Positions 59,947 through 64,000 are shown, counted from the first letter of the stretch. The stretch: 64,000 nt of DNA from Bacteroidia bacterium (GCA_964215915.1 CAXPEB010000026.1:10342-74341), one strand, 5' to 3'. A program made the numbers and translations. The notes: generated from the sequence alone by a model not told the origin.

Positions 59947-60617
59947 TGAAACACCTGAATCTGCTCTTCTTTTTGTGTATCAATACCCTCTCTGTGTATG
60001 CCCAGGACTATAATGGGCTTGCCCTCCAGGTGGTTGATAGTCTTAACCACGATTCCACCTTATGGAAACGGTTTGAAATGAAACTGAAGCTGGAAAGCTG
60101 GAACAAAGACGGGGAAAAGGAAGTAAGAGAGCTTCATTATGCACGTTTTGACAATAGCTGGGAATTGACGAACGAAGACTTCCGCATGTTTGCCAATGAC
60201 CGTTATGTGCTGGTAATTGCTTTCAAAGACAGTGTTGCCTTCTTGTCGGAGGATACACGAATACCGGGATTCGAAGAAAGTGTTCCCCTGAATTCCGTAC
60301 TTAACGCAGGTGCTGCACTTTATGAAGTAAAGGGAACCCGGGTAAGTTTCCTGGTTCGGAATGACTCTGTTCAATGCAGTTATCTCTATACGGTGGATAC
60401 CGTAAGCCGAACTCTCAGATCGGTTGAAATACAACCGTATGATAATTCGGAAGACAAAGTTCAACGTCAATGTATCCATTATCAATCCCTGGCGAGACTT
60501 AGGGATAAGGAGGGAATTACCCCCCTCGAAAACATAGTATATATCCGGCGCAGGAAGGCCACCCTCCTGGCTCCATATGACCGCTTTATCTTTTACGACA
60601 ACCGAAAAGAACCATGA
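59946..60617 (+). CDS. Small secreted protein (223 aa) between the SpvB-domain and RHS genes
   Basis: Signal peptide MKHLNLLFFLCINTLSVYAQ. TGATG overlap upstream and ATGA overlap downstream. Confidence 0.55.
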   Translation: MKHLNLLFFLCINTLSVYAQDYNGLALQVVDSLNHDSTLWKRFEMKLKLESWNKDGEKEVRELHYARFDNSWELTNEDFRMFANDRYVLVIAFKDSVAFLSEDTRIPGFEESVPLNSVLNAGAALYEVKGTRVSFLVRNDSVQCSYLYTVDTVSRTLRSVEIQPYDNSEDKVQRQCIHYQSLARLRDKEGITPLENIVYIRRRKATLLAPYDRFIFYDNRKEP

Positions 60618-63600
60618 AAACCAAGAGTTTCTACTTTCTGGCTTTTGCTCTGTTAATGATGAATACCACATGGGTGAAAGCCCATTGGGAGCCCAGGATT
60701 TCCAGCAAAGTGACGGTAGCCGATCAGACATTGGATATATCCGCTTCGGCCAGCGGCACTCCCATTGCCCTTTCCGATTGGTTGTTCGCCGACCTGAATG
60801 ATTTAGCCAATTCGGGAACAGGAAACCCGGCATTGATGCAGCTCGTGGACCAGGACGTGGTCAACATACTGGAGGCGGGATTCGGGGAAAGCCAAAGCTA
60901 TACGCATCCCGAGTATTGTGAGATTGAATTCAGGTTACGGATATACGGATACCATCTGCTTGGAGGTGCACCCGATGTCATCGACATTGAATTTTCCGAT
61001 TCCTTCAAAATCAAATTCGATCCGCAGTCGGGCTTTATGGATTACCCGAAAGTAGCGCGCAATATTCCGGGAGATTACCTGAAACTTGAATGTCATGTGT
61101 TGGAAGTCAATTACCGCACGATTACCTCAGGTTCCCTGGGTAACCAGAATATTACAGACATAAACGATTTGCCGGAGAACCTTTATGTGGGGCTCAGTAT
61201 GGAAGTCGACAGGGTCTACGATTTTGGCTATGAAGATCCGGGTAACCCAAGTATCAATTTTGCTTCGGTTACTGCCGGCACAGCCATCCAGTTTACGCCC
61301 CTGGATGATCTAACAAATGCTTCTTCAATCACCCTCGTTTCAGCTACGGCTTGTGACGGTTATTACGAGTTATCCTGGCCTTCCATAGTATCACAAGGGT
61401 TTGATAATTATGAAGTCGAATGGACGTTTATTGAAGAGAGTTTGGTAACCGGAACCTCTCCTAACCTGAGCTTTACCGCGGGCTTCAATAAGAATTCAAC
61501 CCGCGTACAGGTAAAAGGAAATACGTACCGGATACCGGCAATCTATCCCCAGGGCTTTGTCGTTGCACGGGTCCGTGGGGTTACCGATGACTTTTACTAC
61601 AAAAATACCAATCTGTACAAAACGGACTGGTCCCTTCCGGACGAGGCTCAGATCGGATACAACACCGCTACACAGGAGTTTACGCTGACGTATACCGCAA
61701 CGGTGATATTCAGTGCAGCCGAGTGCCAGGGTTATGCCGAAGCATTCAATTGGGACCATTCGGTTTCTTTCGCGGAAGAAGGCAAACGAAAGCAGGCGAT
61801 TTCCTACTATGACGGCTCCCTTAGAAACAGGCAAACAGCAACGGTTTTAAGTACGGAGAATGTTCCTGTAGTGGGAGAGGTAATTTATGATTACCTCGGC
61901 AGGCCTGTAGTGCAGCCGCTTCCGGTTCCGGTACTGGATGAGGAAGGATTATGTTTCCGGGCACTGCTGAATGTTTCTACCGCCACCGACGAGCCGTACA
62001 GCTGGAAGGACTTTGATCCCGATTACCAGCAATGTGGACCTACCCAAACAGGTAGTATGAGTACCTCCAATGGGGCCTCCGCTTATTACTCCTCCGACGG
62101 AAGTACTTTGATCAATACCACCTTCAGCGATTACGAGATAAGCAACAACCAAAAACAGGCAGCAGCATTTATTCCCGATGCCCAGGGTTACCCCTTCACA
62201 CAGGTTGAATACCTGCCGGATGGCACGGGACGGGTTTCACGCCAGGGAGGCGTTGGGATTACGCACCAGTTGAACGGCGTTGATGAGAATACCGACCCCC
62301 TGCCGGGAAAGGAAATCAGTTACCACTATGGCAATGCCCCCCAAACCGAATTACTGCGTTTGTTCGGAAACGAAATAGGACAATATGCCAAATACCAAAA
62401 GAATTATGTGACCGATCAGAACGGGCAGCGCTCGGTGAGTTATGTTGATCCTAACGGAAATGTGGTGGCGACCTGCCTGGTCGGAGATCCGGAAGCAGTC
62501 ATCAATGTCGGCCACCTGAGCAGTTCCGAAGGCGAAAACGTATTGATCCCGGAGAATCTGGATAATACGGAAATACGCCTCGAGGAAGGGGAGTTGATCG
62601 CCGTATTTGAGCATGTCGCAGGAGTTGATGGCAACTACCAGTTTACGTATACCATGACTTCGCCGCAACTGAGCGGATTCTGTGATAACGAACTGTGCTT
62701 TGACTGCATTTACGACTTTGAACTCAGCATCAAAGACGAATGCGGAACAGAGCTGATTCCAGGAGGCCCCAAAACAGCTACGGTAGGTACCGTTGATTAC
62801 GAATGCGGCATGGAAGCCATCGGCTTTAGCATGACTCCTTCGCCGTTGGTGATCTACGTAACGAAAGGAACCACGCTGCATATTGAGAAAAAACTGAAGA
62901 TCAACGAGAGTGCTTACCGGCAATACGAAGCCAAATTCCTGGAAACAATTGATGATTGTATCCCCTCCTACGAGGAACTGTATACGGAAGAACGAGCCAA
63001 ATTGTCGGACGACTGTGAGTATGACCCCTGCGAAGATTGTGAGGGTGATGCAGCCACCCGGCTTGCCAATGGGGATATCAGCCAGAATGAATACGATTAT
63101 ACCGTATTCCAGTGCAAGGAAGTTTGTAACCCAACACCCTGTACCATTCTGATGCGGAATATGATCCAGGATATGTCTCCCGGGGGACAATATTTCGACA
63201 ACCTCACTGCCTATGAGCCCGGAGTTACCAATCCCGACGACCAAACCCGGAACTACGATTGGATGGATCAAACGCTCACCCAACAGCAGTACAACGATTT
63301 CTTCTCAGAGGTGAATCTGGAAAACGGAACTTCCTATACCTCATGGGAGGAAATCCGCTACAATTTTGAAGACCAATTCGCATTTAAACTGGTTCAATAC
63401 CACCCCGAATATTGTTATTACCAAAGCTGTATCGCTATAGAAGAAACCTATGTTTTTGATATGGAAATGCTGGCTTCGGAAAATGCAACCGAAGCGTTGG
63501 TAAATGGCTATTTTAACCCCATCGGTTCTAACCCGAATACCACGGAATTTCCTGCTCCGACAGTCAAGGACCCGTTTTTTGTCAATTCTTCCGGAAACCC

Positions 63601-64000
63601 TGTTGGTTACTATTACGAAATGCGGGAAGCCCTTTTGAATTTTGATAATTCAACATGGACCAGCCTCTGGCAAATACTTCAGGACTACCGCACGAATAGT
63701 ACATTGGGAAATACGACCGGAAATTCGAATTGTCCTTCCAGTTTTGATTTTCAGTTATTCTATGCCGGTTACCAAACCTGGAAGGTCGAACAACTGGCGA
63801 GGTATTACGATTCCGTTTGTCAGAATACGGAGATTGTTGAGGGGAAAGCCCGTCGCTTTACATACGATCACGATGAAGTATTGACCGAAAATCCTCTTTA
63901 TAACCCCGACCGGGATCTGATGAAAGAGAATATCGAAGAGGAGATGGCAAGTACCTGTGGCGAACGTTGCGAAGGGTATGCCCTGTCCTGGATGCAGTCC
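60614..64000 (+). CDS. RHS/YD-repeat protein with signal peptide (TcC-like/YD-shell protein; 3' end outside window)
   Basis: Open frame from ATG 60614 to the window end (more than 1,128 codons, verified by hand translation). Signal peptide MKTKSFYFLAFALLMMNTTWVKA. YD repeats (AISYYDGSLRNRQTATV, EVIYDYLGRPV, NYVTDQNGQRSVSYVDPNGNVVAT). Cys-rich acidic segment DDCEYDPCEDCEGD. Not in the ORF track because no stop is reached. Confidence 0.75.
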   Translation, partial: MKTKSFYFLAFALLMMNTTWVKAHWEPRISSKVTVADQTLDISASASGTPIALSDWLFADLNDLANSGTGNPALMQLVDQDVVNILEAGFGESQSYTHPEYCEIEFRLRIYGYHLLGGAPDVIDIEFSDSFKIKFDPQSGFMDYPKVARNIPGDYLKLECHVLEVNYRTITSGSLGNQNITDINDLPENLYVGLSMEVDRVYDFGYEDPGNPSINFASVTAGTAIQFTPLDDLTNASSITLVSATACDGYYELSWPSIVSQGFDNYEVEWTFIEESLVTGTSPNLSFTAGFNKNSTRVQVKGNTYRIPAIYPQGFVVARVRGVTDDFYYKNTNLYKTDWSLPDEAQIGYNTATQEFTLTYTATVIFSAAECQGYAEAFNWDHSVSFAEEGKRKQAISYYDGSLRNRQTATVLSTENVPVVGEVIYDYLGRPVVQPLPVPVLDEEGLCFRALLNVSTATDEPYSWKDFDPDYQQCGPTQTGSMSTSNGASAYYSSDGSTLINTTFSDYEISNNQKQAAAFIPDAQGYPFTQVEYLPDGTGRVSRQGGVGITHQLNGVDENTDPLPGKEISYHYGNAPQTELLRLFGNEIGQYAKYQKNYVTDQNGQRSVSYVDPNGNVVATCLVGDPEAVINVGHLSSSEGENVLIPENLDNTEIRLEEGELIAVFEHVAGVDGNYQFTYTMTSPQLSGFCDNELCFDCIYDFELSIKDECGTELIPGGPKTATVGTVDYECGMEAIGFSMTPSPLVIYVTKGTTLHIEKKLKINESAYRQYEAKFLETIDDCIPSYEELYTEERAKLSDDCEYDPCEDCEGDAATRLANGDISQNEYDYTVFQCKEVCNPTPCTILMRNMIQDMSPGGQYFDNLTAYEPGVTNPDDQTRNYDWMDQTLTQQQYNDFFSEVNLENGTSYTSWEEIRYNFEDQFAFKLVQYHPEYCYYQSCIAIEETYVFDMEMLASENATEALVNGYFNPIGSNPNTTEFPAPTVKDPFFVNSSGNPVGYYYEMREALLNFDNSTWTSLWQILQDYRTNSTLGNTTGNSNCPSSFDFQLFYAGYQTWKVEQLARYYDSVCQNTEIVEGKARRFTYDHDEVLTENPLYNPDRDLMKENIEEEMASTCGERCEGYALSWMQS

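Follow-up and report, generated by a model that had tools for sequence, protein, structure and literature searches.

A Sec-exported RHS protein of the DUF6443 class, probably a polymorphic toxin, encoded last in a conserved seven-gene operon of Bacteroidota

Introduction

RHS toxins are well understood where they ride on the secretion system of type VI (T6SS), form part of Tc complexes or are fixed to the walls of Gram-positive bacteria. How a Sec-exported RHS cocoon of 3,000-5,000 residues passes the Gram-negative outer membrane and reaches its target is a question raised by a locus at the 3' end of a 64,000-nt stretch of DNA (here called the window) from a Bacteroidia bacterium (GCA_964215915.1 CAXPEB010000026.1:10342-74341). 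The element under study is an open reading frame (ORF) on the + strand, 60614..64000, that runs off the end of the window, and which the initial annotation had described as a signal-peptide RHS protein whose C-terminal toxin domain lies beyond 64 kb. Taken as a whole, the evidence presented here is best explained if the segment is the 5' third (codons 1-1129 of ~3,400) of a single gene encoding a polymorphic RHS toxin that is exported by Sec and belongs to the "DUF6443-RHS" class of Bacteroidota, and we regard this as probable. The RHS part of the description could be followed onto an overlapping contig that carries RHS repeats and half of the RHS core, and the toxin part is drawn from full-length homologs.

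The open reading frame and its extension

The frame that opens at ATG 60614 is uninterrupted to position 64000, as initially annotated, and it was missing from the ORF listing because the listing leaves out any frame that continues past the point where the source ends. Each of the other five frames of the same 3,387-nt segment contains 18-61 stops, the probability of meeting no stop by chance in the 60614 frame is ~1.6e-26 (from the per-codon stop probability at this base composition), and the longest open stretch found in 500 shuffles of the segment was 200 codons. The start codon and the TGA of the preceding 223-aa ORF (59946..60617) share the sequence ATGA, in agreement with the overlap first described.

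The same locus was found on a 19-kb Logan contig, SRR28144557_30716 (L001), which is identical to the window at all 13,641 overlapping bases and carries the frame on, without a stop up to the end of the contig, to 2,929 codons or more. A premature stop, such as sequencing error or a pseudogene would bring, was thus not found over this length. Four full-length co-linear homologs (P0001-P0004), 3,379-3,413 aa in length and 51-69% identical, can be aligned over the entire length up to their variable ends, and the alignment contains hundreds of invariant columns along its whole length. The gene's own 3' end was sought by a scan of genome contigs, which gave the P0001 locus only, by exact-match and protein-guided scans of metagenomes, which gave no match, by a contig search for the encoding sequence, which gave L001 only, and by a homology search with the conserved core tail, which returned only fragments from other samples.

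Signal peptide and N-terminal module

The protein begins with a Sec-type signal peptide (aa 1-23, 60614..60682; this and the following features of the gene are on the + strand), as the initial annotation had stated. It comprises an MKTK n-region and a hydrophobic core whose Kyte-Doolittle score peaks at 2.4, with cleavage predicted between VKA and HWEP, and residues 2-18 are modelled as a helix. The junction (A or G followed by HWE) is kept in all four full-length homologs, and signal-like N-termini are found in more distant relatives as well.

An exhaustive HMMER search, in which the 1,129 residues inside the window were run against 1.84 billion cluster representatives, returned 2,502 matches at E<=1e-3 and 2,258 at E<=1e-10, nearly always aligning to query residues ~245-862 and lying near the N-terminus of proteins of 2,000-5,000 aa. 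BLAST comparison of the extended protein with its 120 best relatives gave a similar picture: residues ~300-700 are common to all 120, and coverage tapers toward residues ~250 and 860, where most alignments end. By these results the window encodes the conserved N-terminal module of a very large protein family, of which the Pfam family DUF6443 spans a small part only. This family-wide module (aa ~245-862, 61346..63199), delimited by homolog coverage and HMMER, is made up of an FN3-like domain, the DUF6443 region, a further beta region and a cysteine cluster.

The DUF6443 (PF20041) match covers aa 384-447 (61763..61954) and model positions 14-77 of 137; it is the only family match inside the window and, at 26.7 bits (E=7e-6), scores just below the gathering cut-off of 27.8. 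PF20041 is precomputed on most of the homologs, and phmmer matches to PF20041-bearing proteins reach E-values down to 1e-132 over aa 245-1100; judged by sequence, the homology to these proteins is unambiguous. Fold searches with the AlphaFold2 (AF2) model of the N-terminal part identified the FN3-like beta-sandwich (aa ~245-325, 61346..61588) only, with no plug, TcB or teneurin match. The preceding beta-rich domain or domains (aa ~29-202, 60698..61219), delimited by DSSP on the AF2 model, are largely specific to close homologs, BLAST coverage of aa 1-200 being low among the 120 relatives.

Twelve family-conserved cysteines, including two C-x4-C-x2-C motifs, fall within aa 690-843 (62681..63142) according to column conservation in a 46-sequence alignment. 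The unusual Cys/Asp/Glu-rich block DDCEYDPCEDCEGD...CKEVCNPTPC to which the initial annotation had drawn attention was located at aa 799-843 (63008-63142), where the helical part of the protein begins, and its residues C801, C806, C809, C834, C838 and C843 are Cys in 38-45 of the 43-46 aligned family members. It had been proposed that the block might bind metal or form disulfides; disulfides are the likelier of the two because the protein is Sec-exported. From residue 765 to ~1710 the protein is predicted to be alpha-helical and Cys-rich, on the basis of DSSP helices at 765-1128, Cys counts per 100 aa and the coverage profile, and the start of this region lies in the window (62906..64000). Past residue ~1000 only a minority of relatives, and a dwindling one, has it, and residues ~1300-1600 are found in only 5-6 of the 120.

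YD repeats and the RHS core

The initial annotation placed multiple YD repeats from about residue 395 onward, but these were not found there. Neither Pfam RHS_repeat nor TIGR01643 matches the protein within the window, even at E<=10, and a strict YD regular expression finds eight motifs, all at aa 1730-2296, the window holding only the loose motifs YDYLGR (425) and VDPNGN (611). When aa ~385-770 were compared, profile against profile, with the YD shell of the same protein, the result was E=0.41 and a probability of 0.1%, no better than the E=0.86 of a helical control. The YD repeats proper start near residue 1,720, past the window, and form a shell region at aa ~1720-2470 that is likewise common to all 120 best relatives. 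Within the extension both PF05593 (30.2 bits, cut-off 22) and TIGR01643 (16.3 bits, cut-off 15.8) match at aa 1783-1812.

The first half of the RHS core, NHLGNV...YDYYPFG, is present on L001 at aa 2427-2469 (NHLGNV at 2427, YDYYPFG at 2463), and the second half is seen in the homologs as YRYGFNGQEKDNE...RLGRFLSVDP...IDLEGKE. A DPxGL autoproteolysis motif had been expected at this point; the homologs show that this lineage reads (I/M/R)[DE]LEG[KA]E instead. The core model TIGR03696 (cut-off 32.5) scores 37.8 bits in P0001, 31.7 bits, just below the cut-off, in P0002 and 51.9 bits in a 30%-identical relative, P0005, and covers model positions 13-75 in P0001 but runs unbroken over 1-75 in P0005. 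The spacing from DYYPFG to YR[YF]GFNG is ~597 aa in P0001-P0004 versus 18 aa in P0005. The RHS core of this clade is therefore split by an insertion of ~580 aa between DYYPFG and YRYGFNG, at L001 17644-19041 (aa ~2470-2929) and at aa 2487-3068 of P0001. Among the 120 best relatives the insertion is common only to the RHS protein and its four full-length homologs. BLAST found no internal repeats in it and Pfam gave no match; recurring ...TG.WT... motifs convey the impression of four beta-sandwich modules.

C-terminal domains and downstream genes

The four full-length homologs are co-linear up to [DE]LEG[KA]E and then continue into mutually unrelated C-termini of ~250-300 aa. The C-terminus of P0002 is a TNT NAD+ glycohydrolase (E=3e-26) and that of P0003 has a weak AHH-nuclease match (E=5e-3); domain classification of the P0001 and P0004 C-termini returned no recognisable toxin family. 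Other toxin domains of Pfam, among them Tox-MPTase3, Ntox30, LHH, GH-E, Ntox46 and PT-HINT, are found in about 100 relatives. Directly downstream of the RHS gene, the loci of homologs and relatives have a small ORF, and these ORFs are mutually unrelated: 270 aa in L002, the P0001 metagenome-assembled genome (MAG), where it overlaps the RHS stop, 83 aa in L003, 193 aa in L005, 134 aa in L009 (Flavobacterium columnare) and 152 aa in L011. Searches for proteins consisting of a core tail and a variable end, mostly of ~300 aa, gave 1,738 matches, and in L010 and L005 the main gene has orphan core-tail cassettes downstream of it. As read from sequence, the combination of a conserved core, hypervariable ends, small downstream ORFs and orphan cassettes is the classic mark of a polymorphic RHS toxin.

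Strings of small ORFs follow the RHS genes at 21575-25900 in L010 and 18894-20675 in L005, with extra YRFGFNG core-tail motifs at 24168 and 25390 in the former and at 20115 in the latter, and with an HNH protein and an alpha/beta-hydrolase among their products; these strings are probably orphan toxin and immunity cassettes. At 19135-24549 in L002 and 22258-23717 in L009, a helix-turn-helix (Xre-type) gene on the reverse strand and a PF27228 gene come after the RHS gene and its small ORF. Further on in L002 are two tyrosine recombinases and a DUF1016 gene, a stretch that may mark the border of a mobile element.

The seven-gene operon

The RHS gene is the seventh and last of seven + strand genes whose stops and starts overlap or abut. 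All seven products carry N-terminal export signals, and none has internal alpha-helical transmembrane segments. Gene order is kept, completely or in part, in each of the seven loci examined, namely the window, the P0001 and P0002 contigs, the P0005 contig, the locus of P0009 (a propeller-type MAG protein), that of P0047 in Chitinophaga japonensis and that of P0092 in F. columnare, which is rearranged. Literature searches on DUF6443 and on RHS systems of Bacteroidota or Flavobacterium turned up no account of this family or operon. PADLOC defence families were also tried on the operon partners, and the single coiled-coil match returned was spurious.

The first gene (48085..50448) encodes a 787-aa exported protein whose sequence and composition point to a middle part (aa ~200-350) that is charged and resembles a coiled coil, with ...TLGYAF at the end of its C-terminal half, and which is a candidate outer-membrane beta-barrel. 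Searches of Pfam, NCBIfam and the PDB gave no significant match for it, and a gene for a protein of 733-910 aa occupies its position in L003, L005 and L011. It is followed by genes for a 379-aa exported protein with a signal peptide (50438..51577), conserved in L003 and L005, and for a 179-aa candidate OmpH/Skp-like periplasmic chaperone with an N-terminal signal or anchor (51564..52103). The PF03938 match of the latter, at 23.3 bits, is below the cut-off of 32.4, and a PDB sequence search returned nothing significant; its counterpart in L005 has a full-strength precomputed OmpH match, and that in Hymenobacter is annotated by NCBI as an OmpH family protein. The fourth gene (52100..52684) encodes a 194-aa predicted lipoprotein with a LILISSC lipobox, also conserved in L003 and L005. 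Next are g2421 (52681..59946), for an exported giant of 2,421 aa described below, and the translationally coupled gene for a 223-aa exported protein (59946..60617). A gene for a protein of ~225-250 aa stands at the position of the latter in every locus examined, with sequence homology confirmed in L002 and L003. Upstream of the operon, 46781-48085 is an ORF-poor gap of ~1.3 kb, where promoter- and terminator-like sites are no commoner than chance.

The operon (48085 to beyond 64000) could be a dedicated, Bacteroidota-wide, Sec-dependent apparatus for the export of giant RHS toxins across the outer membrane and for their delivery, in which the module at aa ~245-862 would serve for docking and the core insertion would add external binding modules to the cocoon. 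It would in effect be an undescribed route of secretion or of contact-dependent delivery. We offer this tentatively, as an idea that is less likely than not. The parts of such an apparatus would be a barrel with a coiled coil, the 379-aa protein, an OmpH/Skp-like chaperone, a lipoprotein, a TcB-like giant, an adaptor of ~230 aa and the RHS toxin itself.

Domain order, family membership and the conservation of the operon are as observed above. By analogy to solved Rhs and TcC systems, the protein would cross the inner membrane via Sec, its cysteines would form disulfides in the periplasm and the YD shell would enclose the C-terminal toxin, which the aspartyl autoprotease of the core would free at the ...LEG(K/A)E boundary, as it does in solved Rhs and TcC proteins. 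Going by gene linkage only, the six co-transcribed exported partners might act as chaperones of the toxin, bring it across or onto the outer membrane, present it at the surface and help in its delivery to a neighbouring cell. The small downstream ORF would protect the producer.

Several points weigh against this account. The toxin end of this genome's gene (the last ~470 residues) and its immunity gene lie beyond the recovered sequence, and what is said of them is drawn from the homologs. The ~580-aa break in the RHS core raises the question of whether autoproteolysis takes place in this clade, where it may be affected. Comparison of the operon partners with known secretion components yielded no match above threshold, and no energy source is encoded in the operon. 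The barrel assignment of the 787-aa protein comes from its signal peptide and C-terminal ...GYAF only, the amphipathicity heuristic being uninformative, and the AF2 models of both the RHS N-terminal part and g2421 are of moderate quality (pLDDT 66-69).

The giant partner g2421 and a Tc-like alternative

Homologs of g2421 were found in no fewer than 3,858 clusters at 90% identity, and none of them has a name or a Pfam domain. AF2 modelled the N-terminal 1,200 aa of g2421 as long beta hairpins (pTM 0.64), and its C-terminus contains YD-like motifs (RHS_repeat E=0.07). The motif GGPSQPE..FTGDFSYNIPL..GGYP..SYHSG..GLGWNI at its N-terminus is one that we take to be like the N-terminal motif of TcB/SpvB, a likeness that sequence searches did not confirm: as an SpvB/TcB domain the N-terminus found no support in Pfam at E<=10, in phmmer searches of the PDB or in PDB profile searches.

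The features of g2421 invite a reading of the locus as a Tc-like cocoon in two parts, in which g2421 would be the TcB analogue and the RHS protein the TcC analogue of a capsule directed mainly against eukaryotic cells, as are secreted ABC toxins. The three best Foldseek matches of the g2421 N-terminal model are indeed YenB/TcB structures (4igl_C, 4igl_A and 5kis_A, E=2.6e-5 to 9e-5); these matches are weak, with probabilities of 0.14-0.18 and a TM of ~0.07, and the resemblance to TcB may be taken as a lead. The YD-like motifs at the C-terminus, a relative that NCBI names "RHS repeat protein" and a homolog of the RHS protein that carries TNT, a known toxin against eukaryotic cells, point the same way. 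Against them stand the profile searches, in which Pfam SpvB, TcdB_toxin_midN/midC and TcA match neither the RHS protein nor g2421 at E<=10, and the failure of g2421 to match the PDB by sequence or profile. When its N-terminal motif was searched against plasmids by tblastn, the genes returned were almost only from Bacteroidota. No TcA-like channel protein is present, hhalign detects no homology between g2421 and the RHS protein, and the latter, having its own N-terminal module and a shell region of ~750 aa, may close a cocoon alone. We consider the two-part Tc-like cocoon unlikely, and continue to prefer a Sec-exported DUF6443-RHS toxin with partners of its own.

Relatives of g2421 occur in other settings. 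On the Hymenobacter sp. DG01 plasmid NZ_CP040937.1 (L012), 8285-22841, a sub-cassette encodes OmpH, a hypothetical protein and a protein like g2421, the one annotated by NCBI as an RHS repeat protein, and lies between a 2,009-aa LamG-like giant and a protein with a type-A sorting domain of the secretion system of type IX (T9SS); this layout may mean that the partner cassette serves other cargo and has a link to the T9SS. At 4376-9232 of the F. columnare locus L009, a separate 1,618-aa protein with leucine-rich repeat and immunoglobulin-like domains also ends in the ~140-aa C-terminus of the g2421 family (YD-like, ...FYEYD.EG.L.R.K.ETERG...), which suggests a reusable docking module.

Other alternatives and the wider window

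The wider window is an ordinary Bacteroidota chromosome. Two secreted proteins with T9SS C-terminal domains (CTDs), one with FN3 and endonuclease/exonuclease/phosphatase domains and the other with a lamin-tail domain, are encoded on the - strand at 37477-39675 and 39915-42086, and the host therefore has a T9SS. The RHS protein could accordingly be cargo of a system already known in Bacteroidota, either the T9SS or T6SSiii, with operon neighbours that have nothing to do with export. Besides the nearby Por_Secre_tail proteins (37477-42086), this possibility is favoured by the T9SS sorting-domain protein that follows the g2421-like cassette in Hymenobacter and by the TANFOR toxins, which have been hypothesised to be T9SS substrates (PMC7073777). 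All four full-length homologs, however, end in variable C-termini or toxin domains, and none in a Por_Secre_tail CTD. For the T6SS, the cleavable signal peptide is out of place and no PAAR or VgrG domain was detected. That the seven genes are tightly linked, their stops and starts overlapping in every locus examined, speaks for a functional unit, and the cargo explanation seems less likely still than the Tc-like one.

The YD shell might instead belong to a non-toxic surface protein with a structural or adhesive role. The C-terminus of this genome's gene lies beyond the recovered sequence, the ends of P0001 and P0004 fall in no recognisable toxin family, and modules of the FN3-like or beta-sandwich type could bind surfaces. 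Against it stand a conserved core with hypervariable ends that set in exactly at the canonical boundary, TNT and AHH-like domains in direct homologs, small variable ORFs after them and orphan core-tail cassettes, and we give such a protein only a slight chance. A pseudogene or assembly artefact, which the truncation of the gene at a contig or window end in both assemblies might bring to mind, deserves next to no weight, given at least 2,929 codons without a stop, two independent sources that agree at every overlapping base and conservation along the whole length. The toxin gene of the DUF6443-RHS class thus stays the preferred explanation.

Elsewhere in the window, a SAM-methyltransferase gene at 45947-46781 (- strand) appears to be split into two overlapping ORFs (46401..46781 and 45947..46417), which may reflect a frameshift or a pseudogene.

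Significance

The RHS toxin itself is an ordinary bacterial weapon, and the possibility of higher interest is that the operon may be an undescribed pathway of export and delivery. The N-terminal module is found in ~2,500 clusters at 50% identity, whose members are named only "hypothetical", "DUF6443" or "RHS repeat protein". If the partners are an export and delivery machine, the operon would represent a new interbacterial or host-directed toxin pathway in a phylum that matters in soils, waters, fish disease and guts, and would also be a large store of toxin and immunity domains yet to be classified. The split RHS core bears on how much insertion the autoproteolytic plug tolerates.

Comparison with known systems

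The T6SS Rhs effectors (Tse5, 8cp6; Tre23, 7pq5; Salmonella bongori Rhs, 8qjc) have the same YD shell and core and an encapsulated polymorphic toxin, and the RHS protein resembles them in weak profile matches (E=0.1-0.7) and one weak fold match. They lack a signal peptide and have PAAR or VgrG-binding N-termini, whereas the protein described here has a Sec signal and a different N-terminal module. PAAR and VgrG models do not match it, no T6SS genes are nearby and its partners are all Sec-exported. The TcB-TcC pairs of Tc toxins (YenB/YenC2, 4igl; TcdB2-TccC3) share the RHS cocoon with a released C-terminal toxin and an adjoining giant beta-hairpin partner; they differ in that SpvB, TcdB_mid and TcA are absent here, all components are Sec-exported and the N-terminal module is different, and PDB sequence and profile searches with the RHS protein and g2421 gave nothing significant. 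In teneurins an FN-type domain and a beta-propeller precede a YD shell, and a domain derived from a toxin stands at the C-terminus. The order of domains here is like that of teneurins and of teneurin-like YD proteins of bacteria, with a propeller in many relatives of the RHS protein, but the present clade is without an NHL propeller, and the sequence and fold searches returned no teneurin match.

WapA of Bacillus subtilis and Streptococcus suis provides a parallel in its Sec signal, RHS repeats, polymorphic C-terminal toxin and downstream immunity gene, and acts in contact-dependent inhibition without a T6SS. It is a wall-anchored Gram-positive protein with no outer membrane to pass, in contrast to the present protein, which faces an outer membrane and is accompanied by a six-gene partner set. 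The TANFOR toxins (Jana, Salomon & Bosis 2020, PMC7073777) are Bacteroidetes proteins of large size that combine a Sec signal and FN3 with a conserved N-terminal domain of the delivery type and polymorphic C-termini, and whose route across the outer membrane is unknown. The RHS protein and its homologs share these traits, but their N-terminal domain is a different one and TANFOR toxins as described have neither an RHS shell nor such a partner operon (PMC7073777). Membership of the TANFOR group was rejected, as TIGR02542 gave no match in NCBIfam scans of the window ORF and the extended protein.

Signal-peptide RHS toxins of Bacteroidetes were already listed by Zhang et al. 2012 (PMC3482391), and Pfam and NCBI already label the family as DUF6443 or RHS core proteins; literature searches found no functional study of this class. 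Its members (PF20041 + PF05593 + TIGR03696), in organisms such as F. columnare, C. japonensis and Paraflavitalea soli, have the same signal peptide, aa ~245-862 module and YD shell, the core motifs NHLGNV, DYYPFG, YRYGFNG and RLGRFLSxDP, a variable toxin end and upstream partner genes. Most of these relatives have a beta-propeller (PF14870), LamG or TSP3 between the N-terminal module and the shell, where the clade formed by the RHS protein and its four full-length homologs has a Cys-rich helical stretch, and the clade differs further in the ~580-aa insertion that splits its RHS core. As far as sequence can tell, what sets this system apart is the Cys-rich helical stretch that replaces the propeller, the core-splitting insertion and the conserved operon of seven genes.

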